Shown here: positions 6,828-23,933 of the stretch, piece by piece | Numbering within the stretch: position 1 is the stretch's first letter | How the letters are laid out: each line of letters opens with the position of its first letter | Virus record (IMG/VR): IMGVR_UViG_2700989400_000006 | Location: 1-25,248 of that record | DNA from: a virus | Lineage: Duplodnaviria > Heunggongvirae > Uroviricota > Caudoviricetes | Reading direction: 5' to 3' (one strand) | Length of the DNA stretch: 25,248 bases | Notes under the pieces: model-generated | Seen by the model: the letters and a program-made list of their open reading frames with translations, nothing else | What the model was told of the DNA's origin: nothing | The model's database searches: none | Program-made: the position numbers and the translations under genes

Positions 6828-7913
6828 TTAGCTCCTGTTCTTATCTAATTGTGCATTTCGCAATTTATCGTTCAGCACCAATATTTCACCAACTGTTTGT
6901 TCAAAACGCCCGGACTCAAGTTCAACCCCAATCGTGCGACGCCCCAATCCCATTGCTGCTTTTATTGTTGCCCCCGATCCCATAAAAAAATCCGCAACCA
7001 CATCCCCCGGACGACTGCTGGCAGAAATTATCTGACGCAACATATCCGCCGGTTTTTCGCAGGGATGCTTACCCGGATAATACTGTACGGGCTTATGCGT
7101 CCAGACATCCGTATAAGGAACGGCGGCCGATACAGAAAAATAACGCCGCAGAGATTTGTATTCCTCAAGCAGACTGGCATATTGCCGGTTCAGTTCACTG
7201 TATGTGCTGACCAGCAGTTGGTGTGGCGTTGCCAGCTCCCCACGCTGGTGTTTTTCTTCTGCAACACGCGCGAACAGCGCCTGCAGTTTTCTGTAATCAG
7301 CTTCGTTCGGTAACTGCCACTGACTGGTACCAAACCAGTGCGACACCATGTTTTTCTTTCCGGTGGCTTCCGCTATCTGTTTGGACGTTATTCCCAGTGA
7401 TTCACGCGCATCACGAAAGTAAAAAATCAGCGGGGCCATGACGTGTTGTTTAAGCTCGCGCTCCTTTGCCGCATAGCCGGCATTTTTTGGCTGATATGGC
7501 CACTGATAATGTTCGGCAAACAGAATGCGCTCTGTTGCCGGGAAATACGCCCGCAGGCTTTCTTTGTTGCACCCGTTCCAGCGTCCGGACGGCTTCGCCC
7601 AGATAATGTGGTTCAGCACATTAAAGCGCTCACGCATCATGATTTCGATATCAGATGCCAGGCGATGACCACAAAACAGGTAAAGACTTCCGGCAGGCTT
7701 CAGTACCCGCCAGAACTGAGCCAGACACTGGTCCAGCCATTTTAGGTAATCATCGTCGCCCTTCCACTGGTTATCCCAGCCCTCGGGCTTCACTTTAAAA
7801 TATGGCGGGTCTGTGACTATAAGATCGACAGAGTTTTCCGATAAGGTCTGGATAAATTCCAGGCAATCAGTGTTGATTAACTCACAACTGGATATTTTTA
7901 CAGTATTAGCCAT
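6828..7913 (-). CDS. DNA methyltransferase, N6-adenine/N4-cytosine class
   Basis: 361-aa ORF with the catalytic DPPY motif (LIVTDPPYF) near the N-terminus and a glycine-rich AdoMet-binding motif near the C-terminus (FFMGSGAT); this order is typical of the N6_N4 methyltransferase family. Confidence 0.9.
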   Translation of the reverse strand: MANTVKISSCELINTDCLEFIQTLSENSVDLIVTDPPYFKVKPEGWDNQWKGDDDYLKWLDQCLAQFWRVLKPAGSLYLFCGHRLASDIEIMMRERFNVLNHIIWAKPSGRWNGCNKESLRAYFPATERILFAEHYQWPYQPKNAGYAAKERELKQHVMAPLIFYFRDARESLGITSKQIAEATGKKNMVSHWFGTSQWQLPNEADYRKLQALFARVAEEKHQRGELATPHQLLVSTYSELNRQYASLLEEYKSLRRYFSVSAAVPYTDVWTHKPVQYYPGKHPCEKPADMLRQIISASSRPGDVVADFFMGSGATIKAAMGLGRRTIGVELESGRFEQTVGEILVLNDKLRNAQLDKNRS

Positions 7914-9403: not shown

Positions 9404-10075
9404 CTATGAAAATGCCGCCTTTTGTTTTGAACGTGTTCTCTCCACTAACAATAAAGCTTCACTATCCAGCCGATGAAAAATGTGTTTCATTGCAACCCAG
9501 TGACCAGTAAATGTCTTGGACCAGTTTTTGGTTGTTACTCCCACCAGTAACGCCAGTTCCTGGTATTCGTAACCTTCCCCACCAAAAAGCTCAGCTTTTA
9601 CCGCCTGCGCCGCCAACCAGATCAACGTCTTCAGGCGCACCAGAGTTTTTCCTGCAATTTTTCTGGTACCGGATTGAGCATTAAATTCAGTCCACGCCCA
9701 CTGCGTTATCGCGATCTGATGCTCCCAGCAAATGCTACCGCTGTAACACCACAGCAGCCAGGCTTTATGATGTTCTTCAAGAGACAGAACGGCGCGTCGC
9801 CATGATGATGTCGAAAACTCAACCGGACTGACCAGGGCAATTGATGAACCTTTCGCCAGCGATTGCTTTCCCGGGATCGGTGGATTATCCAGCGTTACTA
9901 TTTTTCCAGTGACCTTATCGCGGTACCGGATTTTTTTACGTCTGTAACGCCCTGTATTGAACATGGCATTCTCCTGCCAGGCTTCAAGCTGACCTTTTGT
10001 TGCTCCACTCAAATCAGCGGTGGCGATCGTGAGCTGCTCACGCACAAACTGTAAATACTGGTTATTCATGCGCAC
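9404..10075 (-). CDS. Putative late-gene antiterminator (Q-like, non-lambda family)
   Basis: 223-aa ORF directly downstream of rusA and directly upstream of the pR'/tR'-like elements. No lambda-type zinc finger; the assignment rests mainly on position. Confidence 0.5.
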   Translation of the reverse strand: MRMNNQYLQFVREQLTIATADLSGATKGQLEAWQENAMFNTGRYRRKKIRYRDKVTGKIVTLDNPPIPGKQSLAKGSSIALVSPVEFSTSSWRRAVLSLEEHHKAWLLWCYSGSICWEHQIAITQWAWTEFNAQSGTRKIAGKTLVRLKTLIWLAAQAVKAELFGGEGYEYQELALLVGVTTKNWSKTFTGHWVAMKHIFHRLDSEALLLVERTRSKQKAAFS

Positions 10076-10428
10076 TCCAGTTCTGTGATTTTTATCCCCA
10101 GCCGACCACCGGGAACAACCTGACCGCGCATAATATTAACTTCATCAAACTGCTCGTCGTCGATAAGCAGTCCCGCATGTGTCAGTGCATCCAGTGGTGC
10201 TTTCAGAATATTGTCCAGGTCACGACGGCGCTTATCCGGTGGCTCTGCAATAATTTTTATTGCCAGCCTTCCGGACAGATTTAATTTCAGCCGCTGCTGG
10301 CGAACAATAAGCGCCACATCCCGGCGATAACGCTCCCCTGCTTTTGATACAAAATATGTGCTGCCACGACGACGCCAGTAGGTATTTACCGTCGGCGGGT
10401 AAGGCAAAACAAATTCTATCCCCATCAA
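10066..10428 (-). CDS. rusA: Holliday-junction resolvase RusA
   Basis: 120-aa ORF MMGIEFVLPYPPTVNTYWRRRG...EPPDKRRRDLDNILKAPLDALTHAGLLIDDEQF; the DKRRRDLDN motif and length match RusA as I recall it. Confidence 0.9.
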   Translation of the reverse strand: MMGIEFVLPYPPTVNTYWRRRGSTYFVSKAGERYRRDVALIVRQQRLKLNLSGRLAIKIIAEPPDKRRRDLDNILKAPLDALTHAGLLIDDEQFDEVNIMRGQVVPGGRLGIKITELECA

Positions 10429-10437
10429 TAACCTCTT

Positions 10438-11487
10438 TTATCCGAGCACGCCGGTTGCAAAGGCGTGATCAAGAAAACGAAAAATTAAATCAACCTGAGA
10501 ACCATGCTTTTCTTCGAACGCCAACGGATCTGCATGAAGCTCGTTATGATGTTTACGACACAACGGTAACGTGAAAATATCGTGGGCCTTTGTTCCCATT
10601 CCGCCCTGACCATGACCTATCAGGTGATGGGGATCGTCAGCTGGCTTACCACAGCACGCACACGACTGTGTCTTTACCCAGCGTGTGTATTTCTCATTTA
10701 CCCAACGGCGACGTTTAGGTCGCTTCATGAAAGATTCCGGGGACTCAGGATCAACGGCGATGCTTACCACCGCCTTTTCCTGTGGTGAGTTTTGTTGCTG
10801 GTGGACGTGAGGCGGTAGCGCAATATTTTTTGTGCGCTGCTTCAGTATGCTGGTGGCTGTCTGTTCTCCCGGTACGATGTCGCTCTCGCGATACACAGAG
10901 AGGATTTTTTCCACCGGTAATCCCAACGAACGACGTGATACTGCCTCAGGTAGAGCATCCACCATCTGATTGCAAACCGCCCACCAGGATAATTCAGCCA
11001 GCGATAATTCCCGCTCCTGCGTGCCATTCATTGCGTGACGTATAACCTCAAGCATCCAGGCTGTCAGATTTTGTTGAGCAAGTTGCTCGAGTGATTCCGA
11101 TGTCTGGTCGCGCAGCTGGTTGTCGCAGTGCCAGCACAATACCATCGCGCCGGTACCGTAACGGTGAATAACGGTTTCACTATGGTGGTAATCACCATGA
11201 GGCCACTGGCAGGATTTGACATGGCGCAGTAACCAGTCAGACAGTGCACCAGCGCCGCCAGCAGCACGAATCACTCGTTTGTTACTGAAAAACGGCAGTA
11301 ATGATTTATCCTCCGCCAGCGGCTGGCGAACGGTAGGGACGACTCCGGACGGCAGACCGCGCATGCTTTTTGGTTCCGGCTCCACCAGTACTCTGTCGTT
11401 ATGGAATACCGACATTGATTCACGGCCTGGCTTAACGATAACCACCCCGAGTTCCGGTACCGGAACAGGTCGAAGTAATACCCGCAC
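10438..11487 (-). CDS. DUF968-family phage protein (YdfU-like) with C-terminal Cys/His cluster
   Basis: 349-aa ORF, GTG start after GGAGG; C-terminus SCACCGKPADDPHHLIGHGQGG...LCRKHHNELH suggests a zinc-binding or HNH-like module; size and position match Qin YdfU as I recall. Confidence 0.65.
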   Translation of the reverse strand: MRVLLRPVPVPELGVVIVKPGRESMSVFHNDRVLVEPEPKSMRGLPSGVVPTVRQPLAEDKSLLPFFSNKRVIRAAGGAGALSDWLLRHVKSCQWPHGDYHHSETVIHRYGTGAMVLCWHCDNQLRDQTSESLEQLAQQNLTAWMLEVIRHAMNGTQERELSLAELSWWAVCNQMVDALPEAVSRRSLGLPVEKILSVYRESDIVPGEQTATSILKQRTKNIALPPHVHQQQNSPQEKAVVSIAVDPESPESFMKRPKRRRWVNEKYTRWVKTQSCACCGKPADDPHHLIGHGQGGMGTKAHDIFTLPLCRKHHNELHADPLAFEEKHGSQVDLIFRFLDHAFATGVLG

Positions 11488-12226: not shown

Positions 12227-12382
12227 TTACTCCTCAGGTTCGTAAGCTGTGAAGACAGCGACCTCCGTCTGGCCGGTTCGGATTCGTACCTCGCAGAGGT
12301 CTTTCCTCGTTACCAGTGCCGTCACTATGACGGTTAAACAGATGACGATCAGGGCGATTAACATCGCCTTTTGCTGCTTCAT
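12227..12382 (-). CDS. hokD: Hok/Gef-family type I toxin (51 aa)
   Basis: MKQQKAMLIALIVICLTVIVTALVTRKDLCEVRIRTGQTEVAVFTAYEPEE matches my recollection of E. coli HokD (RelF). A perfect 9-bp hairpin (12198-12219) follows the stop, consistent with the folded 3' end of hok-type mRNAs. Confidence 0.9.
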   Translation of the reverse strand: MKQQKAMLIALIVICLTVIVTALVTRKDLCEVRIRTGQTEVAVFTAYEPEE

Positions 12383-12439
12383 AGCCTGCTTCTCCTTGCC
12401 TTTCGGCACGTAAGAGGCTAACCTAGATTTGCCGTTCAT
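12227..12439 (-). CDS. Mok-like upstream reading frame containing hok (70 aa, same frame)
   Basis: In-frame N-terminal extension MNGKSRLASYVPKGKEKQA preceding the Hok methionine, as in chromosomal mokC/hokC pairs (from memory). Confidence 0.5.
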   Translation of the reverse strand: MNGKSRLASYVPKGKEKQAMKQQKAMLIALIVICLTVIVTALVTRKDLCEVRIRTGQTEVAVFTAYEPEE

Positions 12440-12949
12440 AGATTGAGCCTCAGATTAATGTTAAACGTCTTGCAGGACGCGTAATGTTAACTGGGGCTTT
12501 TCTCTATCTGCCTTTGGTGTTCATGCCTGAGGCAGATAGCCTCAAGCACCCGCAGCAATTCTACTTAACTCCCGTCACCTCGCCAATATAAAATCAATCA
12601 GAAAGGCGATCCGTAAGAACAACAGCAAGACAATAAATTGCCATTACAGCCGCAATAGCTAGCGCACATTTGAGAACCAGCACGACAACCTCCTGTATTG
12701 GACGTACACCAATTCTGATAAATATGAGGCTGTCTCATCATTGATTCAATATAACTATTGGGTATAGTTTCTGTGATTTTGTTCTGTAGAAATGGAACAC
12801 AACAACCAGTCACCACCAGCACTTCTTTAAATACGCCAAGTCCGACGCAAGCTAACCTTCTAGTCCGCTTTGAGCGAAGAGCGGACATTGCTAACAGCAT
12901 CCTGTGTGAATCATTACGATCAAATCGATGACTAGATAAGTACAAACCG

Positions 12950-12994: not shown

Positions 12995-13651
12995 TCACAA
13001 AATTCTGAGAGTTTCTAAGATGGATAAAAGTGTTGGAAGCTGACTCTCTCTCACACGGAATCTACCCGTCCTAGATAATTCCGTTTCAATTCCGTTAACG
13101 AAGAAATGTACGGAATCAAAAACGGCCGAACTATTCATGTATTTATTCTGATAAATTTCTTGGAGATTCTTTGAGCTTACTATTTTTGTCTTTGCTAAAG
13201 TAAAAGGATCAACAGAGATATTAGATAGAGACATGGATTTTATCTTGATGTCAAAGCCCTCAGAAAGACCATTTACAATTTTTCTCAGATCAAATTCTAC
13301 TGGTCTCAAGCCACTATCTTCACCAAATAGTTTTTGCACCATAGTATAAGGCACTTTCATACTTAATGGAGGATTAGTGGCATATAGTATGATTTTTTTC
13401 CCTTGTCTGACGCCAAAGTCCACATTTAAGTAAGTTGCTATTTCAACCTCTGAACGCTCGCCATTAGCATATTCTAAGCTTTGCTTGCTAATGCTTCTCA
13501 TGGTAAATCTTAGTTTAAGCACTTCAGAGTTATTAATGATTTGAAAACCATATCCTTTATCTTCATCATAGAGGTTGTCATTTACTTTATGTAATAACTC
13601 ACTTTTAGTTATATCCTTTTCTGCTTTATAAATTTTTACCTTTATCATCAT
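12995..13651 (-). CDS. Cassette gene C: uncharacterized protein (~218 aa), third gene of the AT-rich three-gene operon
   Basis: Start chosen at ATG 13651 (MMIKVKIYKAEKD...) with AGGAGG 6 nt upstream, overlapping the TGA of gene B as ATGA; the track start 13678 is TTG. No motif I recognise. Confidence 0.75.
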   Translation of the reverse strand: MMIKVKIYKAEKDITKSELLHKVNDNLYDEDKGYGFQIINNSEVLKLRFTMRSISKQSLEYANGERSEVEIATYLNVDFGVRQGKKIILYATNPPLSMKVPYTMVQKLFGEDSGLRPVEFDLRKIVNGLSEGFDIKIKSMSLSNISVDPFTLAKTKIVSSKNLQEIYQNKYMNSSAVFDSVHFFVNGIETELSRTGRFRVRESQLPTLLSILETLRIL

Positions 13652-14895
13652 CCAGCCTCCTGATTCAAAGTCTCGCAAGACATAGCTTTCGTTACTGGGT
13701 ATCGCTTGGTATGCTCTTCGATAATAAAGTCATTAATCAAAAATATTTTATCTTCTAATTGTTTCATGACTTGATCAAAGTCTGCGTCACTGAGTTTTTC
13801 TCTCTCTGCGGATGCAGAGTTGCTTTCTTTGTATAACGCTCTGAATTTTATATTTTTCCCAAGATATTTATCATCGAAACTAAGTTCAAAAGTTATAGTA
13901 TGATTCTTAACTACTGAGGAAAATGACTTCCATCGAATTAAGCTTCGATAAAACCCATCACTGCACAGTTCCTTAATTTGAGGTGCGTTCACTAATGATA
14001 GGCCATCATACGCGGCATTGTTAATGTTAAAAGTTAGGTTTTCATCATCGTCAGATGCCATTTCCTGATTATTAATGTCATCATCATTTTCGTTATCTGT
14101 AGAAGGTGAAATCTTGTTTAATAACTCTTGTGTTTCTTCGTTATTATTTCCTTCGAGATTATCTCCATTAATATCCAGAGATGTTTTTATTCTGCTTACT
14201 CTAACCTTTTCAAGACCAGCATATTCAAGTCCTGTTTTTTTATAATTTCCATCAAAATCATAAAGATGAACAGCAAAAATATTCCTAAGATCTGTATCAA
14301 CGATACTTGATAAATCTATTTCGTTGACAACTATGTTGTTACAAACTGTTGATGAATATGTATCAATTATTTGCTTGAGAATTTCTGAAATGCGTGGCGT
14401 ATAGTTATATCTTACTGAAACATATCCTTTTTTTACTATAAAAACTATACTCCCACTGTACAATTTTTTCTGCTGAAACTTACCCCTTCTAAAATCAAAC
14501 TCAGTATAATCAATAGATATATGATAGGTTTGCAAGCCTGAGTAATGATCAATTTTCTCATGCCCTAGCAACTTGGGTCTATTTTCTTTCACTTTGTTTA
14601 CAACGTCATAGAGTTTCTCTATATCAAATTCTTCATATATACGTTTTACTGAGAAGACGTCTTGGCTGGGTTTGGTTGCCAGTTTATCTTGTACTTCTCT
14701 GATGTGATTATATGAAAATGGCAGGTCTGATAATTTTTCTATCAATACCTCTTTTGATAAGTTAGATGGGAAAATTATCCCTCTATTGAAGGCGATTTTC
14801 CTTAATGTAACATCTGTGATTTTTGCACTGTTAGAGTGGAGGGCGGTATAAATGTCACTTTCGTTTGAAAACAACGTAGCTTGATATTTATTCAT
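13648..14895 (-). CDS. Cassette gene B: uncharacterized protein (415 aa) with a central acidic low-complexity linker
   Basis: ATG 14895 lies 10 nt after the gene A stop with AGGAG in between. Residues ~240-285 (NNNEETQELLNKISPSTDNENDDDINNQEMASDDDENL) form an Asn/Asp/Glu-rich linker between two halves. No Walker A/B or other motif I recognise. Confidence 0.8.
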   Translation of the reverse strand: MNKYQATLFSNESDIYTALHSNSAKITDVTLRKIAFNRGIIFPSNLSKEVLIEKLSDLPFSYNHIREVQDKLATKPSQDVFSVKRIYEEFDIEKLYDVVNKVKENRPKLLGHEKIDHYSGLQTYHISIDYTEFDFRRGKFQQKKLYSGSIVFIVKKGYVSVRYNYTPRISEILKQIIDTYSSTVCNNIVVNEIDLSSIVDTDLRNIFAVHLYDFDGNYKKTGLEYAGLEKVRVSRIKTSLDINGDNLEGNNNEETQELLNKISPSTDNENDDDINNQEMASDDDENLTFNINNAAYDGLSLVNAPQIKELCSDGFYRSLIRWKSFSSVVKNHTITFELSFDDKYLGKNIKFRALYKESNSASAEREKLSDADFDQVMKQLEDKIFLINDFIIEEHTKRYPVTKAMSCETLNQEAG

Positions 14896-14905
14896 GTCAT
14901 ACTCC

Positions 14906-15997
14906 TTATGAAAAGTGACATTTTCTATTCACCTGCTTGCTGGCAACCTGGTACTCAAATATAGATAGCTTTTGATTAACAAAAGGAATGGATACTATTT
15001 TTTCCTTTAACGTTTCTATATGAGATTGAGTGAAAGAATATATTCCTATGTAATCATTAATGGCGGATTGCAAATGAATGCTTGAGTGTGATGAGAACGG
15101 AGTTATAACAAATATTTTGTTAAATTGATTGAGTAATTGATAGTTAAATATATACTCTAAAAGAAATATAAAGTGGTTACTGGAATCAATCTCTTCCTTC
15201 CAGAATATATTCAATATTTTATTTCTTATTCTATCGCCACCATCATTTCTAATATATTCGTGTTCATATGAGTAAAAAATCATCCCAGATGTTATCATTT
15301 CAATTGTGGCTGGAAGGATTTTCCCTTTCGTTGCTATTTTATTATGTTTGTCAGGGTAAAAATATGTACAGTTCTCTATCTCAGGAATTTTTTGCCATAA
15401 CATATTTGTTTCTTGTGTTACTTTGTCAGTAATTCCTCTTCTAGTCTCGATGTGTTCTGTAACATCTAGTAAAAATCTGATCATAGTTGGGTCAAAAACG
15501 GCAATCACAGAGTTCTCTGGAAAATCATAACTTGCTGTGGCTGCTCCATTTAATTTCTCAATTAAATCAGAGTCATATTTATTGTCATGATTATATATAA
15601 AAAGTAGGCCGTTAACTTGATATTTCTCATTTGTGCTGTCAACAAATAGACGCCGCCACTCAGGACTTCTTGGCGCGCAAGCTACCTGTTGTGATAAACT
15701 TCGTACAGTGTTCAATATTGATTTTGTACCGTCAAGCGTGCTGGCACAATAAGATTTTAAATCTGTTTGTATATACTGAGTTATATCTGAATAAGGATCT
15801 TTATATTTGAAGACTACATCCGTAGGATGAGTTTTTTTTGGGTTTTCAGATAAAAGTTGTTTAGCGTTTAGATGAGATCTCAAACAACAGTCCCAACTTA
15901 TATCCGTTGTATTTTGGGTTTTCCAGCCTAACTCATCAAAAATTCTACTGGAAATGATACCTGCAATCTCATCAATATTCTTAGTTTCGCCGCCCAC
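14906..15997 (-). CDS. Cassette gene A: uncharacterized protein (363 aa), first gene of the operon
   Basis: GTG start at 15997 preceded by GGAGGA; no in-frame ATG upstream. The N-terminal ~90 aa carry a pattern compatible with, but not diagnostic of, a PD-(D/E)xK nuclease core (FDE ... HPTDVVF ... IQTDLK). Confidence 0.7.
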   Translation of the reverse strand: MGGETKNIDEIAGIISSRIFDELGWKTQNTTDISWDCCLRSHLNAKQLLSENPKKTHPTDVVFKYKDPYSDITQYIQTDLKSYCASTLDGTKSILNTVRSLSQQVACAPRSPEWRRLFVDSTNEKYQVNGLLFIYNHDNKYDSDLIEKLNGAATASYDFPENSVIAVFDPTMIRFLLDVTEHIETRRGITDKVTQETNMLWQKIPEIENCTYFYPDKHNKIATKGKILPATIEMITSGMIFYSYEHEYIRNDGGDRIRNKILNIFWKEEIDSSNHFIFLLEYIFNYQLLNQFNKIFVITPFSSHSSIHLQSAINDYIGIYSFTQSHIETLKEKIVSIPFVNQKLSIFEYQVASKQVNRKCHFS

Positions 15998-19916: not shown

Positions 19917-20437
19917 TCCATCCATGTTTACGGGATAGATAAAGATATATCGCTTCGAAACCATCGACATGGTTTGGATAGCCTTCCTCAGCAGCAAGGT
20001 TATCCCCAAAACATTCAAGAATATAATTTAAACGCGCTGTTTAATAATGAATCTTCCAGCGAGTCTGATTTAGTTTGCTGACCATTTTAATTTTATCCTC
20101 CATTGAGGTTACTGGTTGAGAATGGAGACCACACGTGACAGCGCGTGGTCGTGCGCCGGACACGGATAAGAATCCGGCACAAACAGTTTACTGAAAGGAT
20201 ATATCCCTGAAAAGTCAGGGCATAACGCGAAAGCGCACGGCGAAGTCATTCCTCCCTTTGTTGTGTACTACTGACATCTTCGTCTGTGCGCTTCCGGTTG
20301 TGGCAATCCGCGAAATGGCGCGGCGGTAAGTATGGCGGGGTTATTCCTTCCCCGTTGAGGACACCGGGTTGTCAGGTTGACCATACGCTTAAGTGGCAAC
20401 CCCGCTGCAACGCCCTCTGTTATCAATTTTCTGGTGA

Positions 20438-20495
20438 CGTTTGGCGGTATCAGTTTTACTCCGTGACTGCTCTGCCGCCCTTTTTAAAGTGAATT
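20438..20495 (+). ncRNA. dicF: DicF small RNA (ftsZ-targeting sRNA of the dicB operon)
   Basis: TTTCTGGTGACGTTTGGCGGTATCAGTTTTACTCCGTGACTGCTCTGCCGCCC followed by TTTTT matches the 53-nt DicF sequence as I recall it, including the terminal GC-rich stem and U-tail; it sits upstream of dicB as in Qin. Confidence 0.8.
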
Positions 20496-20668: not shown

Positions 20669-20851
20669 ATGGAAACGTTATTACCAAACGTCAATACGTC
20701 TGAAGGTTGTTTTGAAATTGGTGTCAGAATCAGTAACCCTGTATTTACTGAAGATGCCATTAATAAGAGAAAACACGAACGGGAGCTATTAAATCAAATA
20801 TGCATTGTTTCAATGCTGGCCCGTTTACGCCTGATGCAAAAAGGACGCTGA
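20669..20851 (+). CDS. dicB: Cell-division inhibitor DicB
   Basis: 60-aa ORF METLLPNVNTSEGCFEIGVRISNPVFTEDAINKRKHERELLNQICIVSMLARLRLMQKGR closely matches my recollection of E. coli DicB; GAGGA upstream of the ATG. Confidence 0.85.
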   Translation: METLLPNVNTSEGCFEIGVRISNPVFTEDAINKRKHERELLNQICIVSMLARLRLMQKGR

Positions 20852-20853
20852 CA

Positions 20854-21057
20854 ATGAATACAGTATTTGCACTCGTTCTGACAGTTTTTCTTAATACAGG
20901 CGAGCCAGTCGATCTTGTTATTGGTATACATGACTCAATGAAAGAATGCATGGCTGCCGCAGCGGAACAGAAAATTCCCGGCAACTGTTATCCGGTTGAT
21001 AAAGTTATTCGCATGGACAATAACGAAATCCCGGCAGGACTTAAAACAGCACCGTAA
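20854..21057 (+). CDS. YdfD-like small protein (67 aa, N-terminal hydrophobic segment)
   Basis: Start chosen at ATG 20854 (MNTVFALVLTVFLNTGEP...) with AAGGA upstream, immediately after dicB as ydfD is in Qin (from memory). Confidence 0.5.
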   Translation: MNTVFALVLTVFLNTGEPVDLVIGIHDSMKECMAAAAEQKIPGNCYPVDKVIRMDNNEIPAGLKTAP

Positions 21058-21137: not shown

Positions 21138-23609
21138 ATGAGTAAAGTCTTTATTTGCGCCGCCATTCCGGACGAACAGGCAATAAAGGAAGAAGGTGCA
21201 GTCGCTGTAGCCACTGCCATTGAAGCCGGCGACGAACGCCGCGCCCGAGCCAAATTTACCTGGCAATTCCTGGAGCAATATCCGGCTGCTCAGGACTGCG
21301 CTTATAAATTTCTTGTCTGCGAGGATAAACCCGGCATGCCCCGCCCTGCCATCGACTCCTGGGATACCGAATATATGCTGGAAAACCGCTGGGATGAGGA
21401 AGGCGCTTCCTTTGTCCCGGTCGAACCAGAATCCGATCCGATGAACGTCAATTTTGACAAGCTGTCCCCTGAAGTACAGAACGCGGTCCTGGTTAAGTTC
21501 GACACATGTGAAAACATCACCGTTGATATGGTTATTAGCGCACAGGAATTGTTGCAGGAAGACATGGCAACATTCGACGGACATATCGTTGAAGCGTTGA
21601 TGAAAATGCCAGAAGTTAACGCCATGTATCCGGAGCTTAAGTTGCACGCCATTGGGTGGGTTAAGCATAAATGTATTCCTGGTGCTAAATGGCCCGAAAT
21701 TCAGGCAGAGATGCGCATCTGGAAAAAACGTCGCGAAGGTGAACGCAAGGAAACCGGAAAATACACGTCTGTTGTTGATCTCGCCCGCGCCAGAGCCAAT
21801 CAACAGTACACTGACAATTCAACAGGAAAAATCAGCCCGGTCATTGCTGCCACTCATCGCGAATACAAGCAGACATGGAAAACACTGGATGACGAACTGG
21901 CCTACGCTCTCTGGCCTGGTGATGTGGATGCCGGAAACATTGACGGCAGCATCCATCGCTGGGCAAAAAATGAAGTTATCGACAACGACCGCGAAGACTG
22001 GAAGCGTATCTCGGCATCAATGCGCAAACAGCCTGATGCCCTTCGCTACGACCGCCAGACTATTTTTGGCCTTGTCCGTGAACGTCCGATCGACATTCAC
22101 AAAGACCCTGTGACACTGAACAAATACATTACTGAATACCTGACTACAAAGGGCGTGTTTGAAGATGAAGGAAGAAATCAGAGCGCAACTGATACTCTCT
22201 CGTCGCCAGTACCAGAAACTGATGCAGTGGAAACGGCAATTCCGGACAACGAAAAAACCGAATGCAAAGTGGAAGTCGAACCATCTGTAGAGCGTGAGGG
22301 GCCGTTCTACTTCCTCTTCACCGACAAGGATGGCGAAAAATATGGTCGCGCAAACAAACTTTCTGGTCTGAATAAGGCGCTGACTGCAGGGGCTACTGAA
22401 ATCACGAAAGAAGAATATTTTGCCCGTAAAAACGGTACATACTCAGGTTCACAACAAAATACTGGTGCATCTGACACGACCGCACAACCAGAGCCGGTAA
22501 AAGTTACCGCTGACGAAGTAAACAAAATTATGCAGGCAGCCAATATCAGCCAGCCTGACGCCGATAAGTTGCTTGCTGTATCACGTGGTGAATTTGTTGC
22601 AGGGATTAGCGACCCGAATGATCCGAAATGGGTGAAGGGGATTGAAACCCGCGATTCAGTGAATCAGAACCAGCAAGAAACGGAACAGAACGACCAGAAA
22701 GCAGAACAAAACAGCCCAAATGCGTTACAAAACGAGCCAGAAACGAAACAACCTGAGCCAGTAGCGCAACAGGAAGCGGAAAAAGTCTGCACCGCATGCG
22801 GTCAGACCGGCGGCGGCAACTGCCCTGATTGTGGTGCGGTGATGGGCGACGCAACATACCAGGAAACATTCGATGAAGAGAATCAGGTTGAAGTTCAGGA
22901 AAATGATCCGGAGGAAATGGAAGGCGCTGAACATCCACACAAGGAGAATGCTGGCAGCGCTCAGGACCACGCCAGCAATAATGAAACTGGCGAGACGGCA
23001 GATCCCTTAATTGCGGTGAACGGTCATCACGTTATCACATCCACCAGCAGGACGTGTGACCATCTAATGATCGACCTTGAAACCATGGGAAAAAATCCTG
23101 ATGCCCCGATTATCTCAATAGGTGCAATATTTTTCGATCCGCAAACCGGAGATATGGGACCGGAATTTAGTAAGACTATCGATCTGGAAACTGCTGGCGG
23201 AGTCATTGATCGGGACACCATTAAATGGTGGCTTAAGCAATCACGCGAAGCGCAATCTGCCATTATGACCGATGAAATCCCGTTAGATGATGCACTGTTA
23301 CAATTGCGGGAATTTATCGACGAAAACTCCGGTGAATTTTTTGTTCAGGTCTGGGGAAATGGAGCCAACTTCGACAACACGATTTTGCGCCGTTCATACG
23401 AACGGCAGGGGATCCCCTGCCCGTGGCGTTACTACAACGATCGCGATGTACGCACAATCGTTGAGCTGGGGAAAGCCATAGACTTCGATGCCAGAACGGC
23501 TATTCCATTCGAAGGTGAGCGCCATAATGCACTTGATGACGCCCGTTACCAGGCAAAATACGTTTCAGTTATCTGGCAAAAACTGATCCCGAGTCAGGCT
23601 GATTCTTAA
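21138..23609 (+). CDS. Large phage exonuclease (823 aa) with central CxxC-CxxC zinc ribbon and C-terminal DEDDh-type 3'-5' exonuclease domain
   Basis: C-terminal motifs MIDLETMG (Exo I), WGNGANFDNTIL (Exo II) and HNALDDARYQAKY (Exo III, His type); central CTACGQTGGGNCPDCG; acidic/Gln-rich linker before it. The antisense ORF 21111..21803 is rejected. Confidence 0.75.
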   Translation: MSKVFICAAIPDEQAIKEEGAVAVATAIEAGDERRARAKFTWQFLEQYPAAQDCAYKFLVCEDKPGMPRPAIDSWDTEYMLENRWDEEGASFVPVEPESDPMNVNFDKLSPEVQNAVLVKFDTCENITVDMVISAQELLQEDMATFDGHIVEALMKMPEVNAMYPELKLHAIGWVKHKCIPGAKWPEIQAEMRIWKKRREGERKETGKYTSVVDLARARANQQYTDNSTGKISPVIAATHREYKQTWKTLDDELAYALWPGDVDAGNIDGSIHRWAKNEVIDNDREDWKRISASMRKQPDALRYDRQTIFGLVRERPIDIHKDPVTLNKYITEYLTTKGVFEDEGRNQSATDTLSSPVPETDAVETAIPDNEKTECKVEVEPSVEREGPFYFLFTDKDGEKYGRANKLSGLNKALTAGATEITKEEYFARKNGTYSGSQQNTGASDTTAQPEPVKVTADEVNKIMQAANISQPDADKLLAVSRGEFVAGISDPNDPKWVKGIETRDSVNQNQQETEQNDQKAEQNSPNALQNEPETKQPEPVAQQEAEKVCTACGQTGGGNCPDCGAVMGDATYQETFDEENQVEVQENDPEEMEGAEHPHKENAGSAQDHASNNETGETADPLIAVNGHHVITSTSRTCDHLMIDLETMGKNPDAPIISIGAIFFDPQTGDMGPEFSKTIDLETAGGVIDRDTIKWWLKQSREAQSAIMTDEIPLDDALLQLREFIDENSGEFFVQVWGNGANFDNTILRRSYERQGIPCPWRYYNDRDVRTIVELGKAIDFDARTAIPFEGERHNALDDARYQAKYVSVIWQKLIPSQADS

Positions 23610-23681: not shown

Positions 23682-23933
23682 ATGAGCGAAGTAATCATGA
23701 TTGTCTCTCCCGGCAAATGGGTATCCGAAGAGCAGTTAATTGCGCTGAAAGGAATAAAAAAAGGTACGTTAAAAAAGGCCCGGGAAAAATCGTTTATGGA
23801 AGGAAGGGAATATAAGCATGTCGCTCATGACGGTATGCCATGGGATAACAGTCCATGCTTTTACAACCTGGAAGAAATTGATCGCTGGATTGAGCGCCAG
23901 GCATCAGCGAGACCAAGACGTCATCTTACTTGA
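23682..23933 (+). CDS. Excisionase-like / small DNA-binding protein upstream of int
   Basis: 83-aa ORF directly upstream of and co-oriented with the integrase gene; no sequence check possible. Confidence 0.45.
   Translation: MSEVIMIVSPGKWVSEEQLIALKGIKKGTLKKAREKSFMEGREYKHVAHDGMPWDNSPCFYNLEEIDRWIERQASARPRRHLT

Follow-up and report, generated by a model that had tools for sequence, protein, structure and literature searches.

A Qin-type prophage gene predicted to encode a DexA-like DEDDh exonuclease joined to non-catalytic regions common to YdfE and RecE

Lambdoid phages keep their recombination genes in the last large slot before the excisionase and integrase genes (xis-int). RecE of the Rac prophage of Escherichia coli K-12, encoded in this early-left operon slot, has an N-terminal Exonuc_VIII domain and a C-terminal nuclease domain of the PD-(D/E)xK type with 5′–3′ polarity, and its gene is adjoined by recT; a role in a RecET- or Red-type recombinase needs both this polarity and an annealase. 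The Qin prophage of the same strain carries ydfE (b1577), a pseudogene cut by the insertion sequence IS2 after codon 256, from which everything downstream is gone. Among nucleases of the DEDDh type, Rv2179c of Mycobacterium tuberculosis, the founder of Pfam family PF16473, is a stand-alone chromosomal exoribonuclease. DexA (PDB 8KEL/8KEN) of T4, a virulent phage degrading the DNA of its host, is a 227-amino acid (aa) stand-alone enzyme with extra loops, and its stand-alone E. coli homolog EcD was reported to digest T4 DNA and protect E. coli cells (PMC12153337). Here we describe an open reading frame (ORF) at positions 21138–23609 (+) of a 25,248-nt stretch of DNA from a virus of the Caudoviricetes (IMG/VR record IMGVR_UViG_2700989400_000006, positions 1 to 25,248; hereafter the window). 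The ORF starts with ATG, just downstream of an AGG-rich stretch, and encodes an 823-aa product. Our analysis shows this product to be a chimera, in which a DEDDh exonuclease domain stands in the place of the RecE nuclease; our confidence in the identity of the protein is high, and in its biological role moderate to low.

Profile search with the C-terminal part of the product assigned it to a nuclease family. The Pfam Rv2179c-like profile (PF16473) matched aa 642–813 with an E-value of 2.4e-67 (226.5 bits against a cut-off of 27), covering positions 2–177 of its 177, and a weaker match to RNase_T was obtained on the same stretch. Three DnaQ-like motifs had been reported for the last ~190 residues in an earlier note on this DNA, and all five residues of the DEDDh pentad could indeed be located there: in MIDLET at 644 (D646, E648), GANFD at 742 (D746) and HNALDD at 796 (H796, D801). 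These align with D7, E9, D119, H186 and D191 of T4 DexA and are invariant in an alignment of six sequences, comprising the ORF product, DexA and four enterobacterial homologs. In the AlphaFold2 model of aa 440–823 the predicted local distance difference test score (pLDDT) is 80–94 across the exonuclease domain, and Foldseek gave 132 matches for it at E ≤ 1e-3, with DexA (8KEL) on top (E 8.8e-12, template modelling (TM) score 0.65–0.72 on the target) and RNase T, REXO2 and oligoribonuclease (Orn) next, at TM-scores of 0.62–0.75 on the target. DexA, the closest solved structure, was also the sole PDB sequence match, at ~27% identity. No PDB chain named Rv2179c was seen among the sequence matches at E ≤ 1 or the top 50 fold matches, while membership of the same Pfam family is strongly indicated by the profile. 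Taken together, sequence and structural model indicate that the C-terminal domain is of the RNase H-like DnaQ fold with an intact two-metal DEDDh active site, and a metal-dependent 3′–5′ exonuclease activity is predicted for it.

Many database entries of this family are partial or start at the internal M644, and homologs include stand-alone proteins of 180–190 aa that are 57–90% identical, such as a 190-aa homolog (~57% identical) that Salmonella phage 118970_sal3 encodes in this slot before int. We considered M644 as an internal start of a stand-alone domain; there is no obvious Shine-Dalgarno sequence before it, and the 180-aa entries beginning with MIDLET are therefore probably truncated gene calls.

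The middle of the protein is a different matter. BLASTP aligned aa 262–625 with residues 278–591 of K-12 RecE (E 1e-63), with the identities concentrated in aa ~470–625, a block that spans the SRGEFVxGISDPNDPKW motif, a zinc ribbon and an acidic linker. At the DNA level, the identity with K-12 recE (locus L003) reaches ~97% within the acidic linker just 3′ of the ribbon and ends sharply at about nt 23012 (aa 625), right before the two differing nuclease domains. Since proteins in this position are usually called RecE, the earlier note had advised that the domain type be confirmed. Of the tests for RecE, only the one for the middle region with its ribbon was positive. No match to PF12684 (DUF3799, the PD-(D/E)xK nuclease) was found in the ORF product, while in the K-12 RecE control DUF3799 was recovered at residues 614–849 with an E-value of 4.1e-28; the N-terminal Exonuc_VIII domain (PF06630), found in K-12 RecE, is likewise not in the ORF product, which has YdfE_N instead; and the NCBIfam RecE equivalog model NF007259 scored 285.7 bits against a cut-off of 1269, matching only aa 238–626 (model positions 261–603). 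With recT also lacking, RecE identity was ruled out. The contrast with RecE drawn in the earlier note is supported for the nuclease domain, with the refinement that ~360 non-catalytic residues, the ribbon among them, are common to the two proteins. The ORF product is a chimera that includes these residues and has a DEDDh domain in place of PD-(D/E)xK. In phage GenBank records LR597641, ON470612, OV696610, PV340562 and others, the DEDDh gene goes by the name of 'exodeoxyribonuclease VIII' or 'ds DNA exonuclease'; the label is found in many phage records because of the middle region common to RecE and is a propagated misannotation.

N-terminal to the exonuclease domain, AlphaFold2 modelled aa 1–470 with a mean pLDDT of 82.6 and folded blocks at 1–225, 245–340 and 385–435. 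The last of these corresponds to a small domain with the motif EREGPFYF...GRANK (the GPFYF domain), which is kept in relatives of the YdfE_N type and went undetected in K-12 RecE. Almost all of aa 440–639 has a pLDDT below 50, rising to ~58 around the ribbon. That a CxxC ribbon precedes the exonuclease domain was noticed earlier and is borne out by a C-x2-C-x7-C-x2-C arrangement at 551–565, in which the pairs CTAC (551–554) and CPDC (562–565) are separated by seven residues; the Pfam DZR profile gave a weak match here (E 0.13). The Gln/Glu/Asn-rich acidic segment placed at residues ~500–600 is equally real: E, Q and N make up 18%, 14% and 9% of aa 500–600, and the net charge is −19.

Results of the comparison with K-12 indicate that the ORF is an intact ortholog of ydfE. 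Over aa 1–256 the product is 93% identical to K-12 YdfE, whose exonuclease domain was lost with the rest of the gene 3′ of the IS2 insertion, and it carries the family domains YdfE_N (PF27430) and YdfE_C (PF27432). The neighbours dicF, dicB and ydfD are also the same: the order of DicA-like repressor gene, ydfA, DicF, dicB, ydfD-like gene, exonuclease gene, xis and int is that of K-12 Qin. In near-identical prophages the integrase end adjoins rspB, as Qin does in K-12. The prophage is thus Qin-type, given DicF/dicB and this rspB site in its near-identical relatives, and the Rac-type setting assumed in the earlier note does not apply. The exonuclease gene itself fills the last large slot before xis-int, and its gene order there recurs in three deposited phage genomes (mEp460_ev081, vB_EcoS-640R1 and 118970_sal3). 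Coordinates of the gene, its parts and its neighbours are collected in Table 1.

Table 1. Positions in the window of the exonuclease gene, the regions of its product and the flanking genes
Feature	Position	Strand	Evidence or remark
Whole gene, YdfE-type exonuclease, 823 aa	21138–23609	+	ORF; phrog_2082; ydfE identity; Pfam YdfE_N, YdfE_C, Rv2179c-like
YdfE_N domain, aa 1–257: alpha/beta lobe (aa 1–~100), helical lobe (aa ~105–225)	21138–21908	+	AlphaFold2 pLDDT mostly >90
Helical middle domain, aa 258–345, common to RecE (~aa 278–360)	21909–22172	+	BLASTP against K-12 RecE; NCBIfam RecE model; pLDDT 89–96
Small GPFYF beta-hairpin/helix domain, aa 385–435	22290–22442	+	pLDDT 92–96; local phmmer domain map
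SRGEFVxGISDPNDPKW motif, then Q/E/N-rich low-complexity stretch, aa 476–550	22563–22787	+	Composition; near-identity with RecE 456–515; pLDDT <50
C-x2-C-x7-C-x2-C zinc ribbon, aa 551–565	22788–22832	+	Motif; conserved in RecE and in distant relative P0381
Acidic linker, predicted disordered, aa 571–640	22848–23057	+	Net charge −15; pLDDT 29–41
Predicted DEDDh 3′–5′ exonuclease domain (Rv2179c-like/DexA-like), aa 641–823	23058–23609	+	Pfam; catalytic residues; pLDDT; Foldseek
DicF small RNA	20429–20480	+	Rfam RF00039, 76.7 bits; 5′ of dicB and the exonuclease gene, early-left operon
dicB	~20669–20851	+	Pfam DicB
ydfD-like DUF1482 gene	20854–21057	+	Pfam DUF1482
Excisionase gene	23682–23933	+	Pfam DUF1233
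Tyrosine integrase gene	23953 to window end (25248), cut off	+	Pfam Phage_integrase

The family is already known and the gene is a very common prophage gene, not a new kind of system: it is annotated by PGAP (as 'exonuclease', '3′-5′ exonuclease' or '3′-5′ exoribonuclease'), PHROGs (phrog_2082 matches the product end to end) and Pfam (precomputed matches of the identical protein to YdfE_N, YdfE_C and Rv2179c-like). Literature searches on ydfE, on Rv2179c together with phage and on RecE together with DEDDh found no functional study of the YdfE-type family. The 558-bp segment coding for the DEDDh domain is present at ≥80% coverage in 4048 of 5426 complete E. coli genomes (~75%), often in several copies and in up to seven per genome, and in the index of the assembly collection the identical protein comes up in 205 blocks. 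Deposited genomes of phages mEp460_ev081, Tritos and HannyBb carry the gene as well. Compared with the mEp460_ev081 copy, the ratio of nonsynonymous (dN) to synonymous (dS) substitution rates is 0.30 overall, 0.15–0.27 in the folded parts and 0.82 in the acidic linker (0.5–0.8 for aa 571–640), and dS ranges along the gene between 0 and 0.30. These ratios show purifying selection on the coding sequence, N-terminal region included, which together with the identical copies elsewhere marks it as a real gene, and the spread of dS is as expected for a mosaic gene.

Elsewhere in the window, a low-GC island (GC 0.32–0.34) at 12995–15997 (−) holds three ORFs of 363, 415 and 227 aa, which have no Pfam match and match the PADLOC models Hp1 (E 5e-40), Hp2 (1e-10) and Hp3 (4e-11). 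These models we take to represent the candidate three-gene defence system 'Rst_3HP'. Another gene, of 2.5 kb, occupies the slot of the island in the related prophage L004, and beside the island lies a hok/sok-type toxin-antitoxin locus with sok antitoxin RNA at 12377–12551 (−) (Rfam RF01794, 111.7 bits). In the window ORFs that were scanned, further enzymes acting on nucleic acids were limited to a DNA methyltransferase (N6_N4_Mtase), a RusA resolvase and a DUF968/HNH-like protein, encoded at 6828–7913 (−) and 10066–11487 (−).

The earlier observation that no RecT/Bet-like gene lies next to the ORF extends to the whole window: neither RecT, Bet, Erf nor a Rad52-like gene was found by Pfam and PHROGs scans of its ORFs or among the PGAP names in near-identical prophages. 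An annealase was equally missing from the related loci examined, namely two near-identical prophages (L001, L004), phages mEp460_ev081 (L005) and vB_EcoS-640R1 (L006), and loci L109–L111 and L112. Two of these loci differ in the N-terminal part of the protein. In vB_EcoS-640R1 another N-terminus (starting MSTDKE) precedes the same DEDDh C-terminus. Locus L112 (GCA_039763085.1, 5001–7418) encodes a natural chimera of a K-12-type RecE N-terminus (Exonuc_VIII) and the DEDDh domain. This chimera is part of a Rac-like operon (sieB, kilR, ydaE); as with our ORF, xis and int come directly after it, and both the RecE nuclease domain and recT are absent from the locus.

To see what else the N-terminal region is joined to, aa 1–640 were searched against 1.84 billion representative proteins, which gave 254 clusters at E ≤ 1e-3, the named relatives coming mainly from enterobacteria. 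A module map was then drawn by local phmmer for 52 sequences of at least 480 residues, the ORF product and K-12 RecE included. The C-terminal module was Rad52-like in 17 of the 52, a PD-(D/E)xK nuclease of the RecE type in 14, DEDDh in eight and a tail ending ...GLCANPA... in seven, while none was detected in the remaining six. By phmmer and Pfam checks, YdfE_N and RecE-type Exonuc_VIII N-termini each occur with PD-(D/E)xK, Rad52-like and DEDDh modules. The Rad52-like assignment draws on Pfam Rad52_Rad22, which matches 16 of the 39 members of this family (best E 1.1e-6), and on the family profile, which among PDB sequences matched only human RAD52, at a modest E-value of ~0.007; a single-sequence PDB search with the module found nothing.

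YdfE_N–Rad52-like fusions are seen in relatives P0249, P0253, P0257, P0286 and P0299 from other enterobacterial prophages, in the same slot before xis-int, and a Morganella prophage (L108, 6067–8065) has a Rad52-like fusion in the slot before int, followed by a Sipho_Gp157 gene. The fourth module, seen in P0245, P0254, P0371, P0378 and P0382–P0384, ends ...LTIAAL(H/Q)GLCANPA..., belongs to the C-terminal part of phrog_26058 and had no Pfam match.

The sharp end of the recE homology together with the varying dS points to a putative recombination hinge for module swapping. Since the non-catalytic region is found joined to a 5′–3′ nuclease, a 3′–5′ nuclease or a Rad52-like annealase, it might well serve for targeting or tethering. 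Going further, the N-terminal region could be a modular delivery platform, swapped at the zinc-ribbon/linker DNA among the four modules, with the DEDDh form representing an annealase-independent pathway; we put this forward tentatively, as an idea that may well prove wrong. If it holds, the DEDDh form could be directed by the N-terminal region to a site or host factor and trim 3′ ends there, or it could counter host defence.

We propose that the ORF product is a chimeric nuclease with which a Qin-type lambdoid prophage would trim DNA 3′ ends early in lytic growth, independently of an annealase, an account that we consider probable, if by no means secure. After induction or infection, transcription from the early-left promoter, which is under repressor control, would cover the gene together with dicF, dicB and ydfD. 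The N-terminal ~640 residues (YdfE_N, middle domain, GPFYF domain, ribbon and disordered acidic tether) would carry the C-terminal DEDDh exonuclease, and the enzyme would strip nucleotides from free 3′-OH ends, most likely of DNA. A DNA substrate is favoured because no relative of solved structure is closer than DexA, a DNA exonuclease of T4, and because in other proteins the N-terminal region is joined to modules for DNA recombination (RecE nuclease, Rad52-like annealase). Trimming or degradation of 3′ ends would thus take place in phage DNA metabolism without an annealase. The protein is unlikely to be the resecting half of a RecET/Red-type recombinase, since a 3′–5′ enzyme would destroy the 3′ tails needed for single-strand annealing.

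Several points weigh against this proposal. Activity, polarity and substrate are predictions for the ORF product and its close relatives alike. Cotranscription with dicF, dicB and ydfD is deduced from the order of the genes and from there being no predicted promoter; the promoter/terminator scan was no richer in sites than shuffled sequence and placed none just 5′ of the gene, which is weak evidence either way. No significant Foldseek match was obtained with the model of aa 1–470 (best E 0.75 in PDB and 0.07 in BFVD), the weak matches, ~65 residues long, being to small phage proteins and proteins of the ribosome. The Pfam family takes its name from an exoribonuclease (Rv2179c), and many DEDDh enzymes are indifferent to the sugar, so that RNA or short oligonucleotides are possible substrates. 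Finally, the role claimed for the stand-alone homolog EcD, defence against T4, is a different one (PMC12153337).

This last role brings up the alternative that the DEDDh domain degrades incoming phage DNA with modified bases, in anti-phage defence or superinfection exclusion, following the 'HREX' strategy of EcD. The closest solved structure is DexA, EcD was reported to digest T4 DNA and protect cells (PMC12153337), its first residues (MIDTET) align with M644–T649 of the ORF product, and the DEDDh family is extremely common in E. coli prophages, this one also holding the defence-like three-gene island. Yet the gene lies in the early-left operon 3′ of the DicA-like repressor gene and has no predicted promoter of its own, so that it should be silent in lysogens, and the product is an 823-aa fusion as opposed to a ~190-aa stand-alone enzyme, EcD differing from the ORF at its 5′ and 3′ ends (EcD was compared by its primer-derived ends only). 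In DexA, W152 and D169 were proposed to recognise 5-hydroxymethylcytosine, and D90 makes a tetramer contact and is replaced by Ala in EcD (PMC12153337). MAFFT places W152 and D169 opposite Y766 and A780, which vary among close homologs, with an invariant W763 three residues before Y766, in a stretch where the alignment is uncertain; D90 has its counterpart in D718, so the EcD-type loss of the tetramer contact is not seen. A search of genome contigs for the EcD gene (HAK9828821.1) with a 17-nt primer core returned 99 stretches, and the 80 listed came from unrelated taxa, none of them E. coli. As for known defence systems, PADLOC gave only a generic CRISPR-associated DEDDh match (E 1.9e-5) and has no dedicated model, so that the ORF product is assigned to none of them. 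On balance we regard a defence role as unlikely. An RNA or oligonucleotide exonuclease resembling Rv2179c, Orn or RNase T, acting on RNA 3′ ends or short oligonucleotides and engaged in nucleotide recycling, the processing of transcripts such as DicF or, in an anti-defence role, the breakdown of host defence molecules that have free 3′ ends, seems about as improbable to us. It would agree with the best Pfam family, the fold matches to RNase T, REXO2 and Orn close behind DexA, the '3′-5′ exoribonuclease' name given by PGAP to many copies and the presence of DicF in the same operon; in both sequence and fold, however, no RNase comes as near to the domain as the DNA exonuclease DexA, Rv2179c itself was missing from the PDB sequence matches at E ≤ 1, and the N-terminal region is otherwise fused to DNA-recombination modules.

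The shared genomic slot, the ~360 residues with the zinc ribbon in common with RecE, the Rad52-like annealase carried on the same N-terminal region by relatives and the exodeoxyribonuclease VIII label of many records could all be taken to mean that the protein is a functional analog of RecE, a nuclease paired with an unrecognised or host-encoded annealase in a two-component recombinase. We hold this to be very unlikely, as DEDDh polarity is opposite and would destroy the 3′ tails for annealing, the PD-(D/E)xK domain is missing and the NF007259 score lies far under its cut-off, and no annealase was seen at the loci examined, recT having been lost along with the RecE nuclease domain in L112. Hardly credible is the view of the gene as a functionless, decaying remnant of a cryptic prophage, to which the IS2-truncated K-12 pseudogene and the many partial or M644-initiated entries might seem to speak: here, as in thousands of genomes, the reading frame is unbroken, dN/dS is ~0.3 with the catalytic residues conserved, and the gene occurs in the deposited phage genomes named above.

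The identity of the C-terminal domain has consequences for how this gene family is read. The RecE label would wrongly predict 5′–3′ resection and recombineering ability, and correcting this frequent misannotation is the main value added here. The region common to RecE and YdfE, with its swappable modules, makes its own function testable, as natural module swaps offer a way to probe the role of the non-catalytic region; should the platform idea be true, it would give a handle on the long-unknown role of the N-terminal region of RecE. And were the DexA-like domain to attack modified or foreign DNA, in the way claimed for EcD, the gene would bear on phage–phage competition in E. coli.

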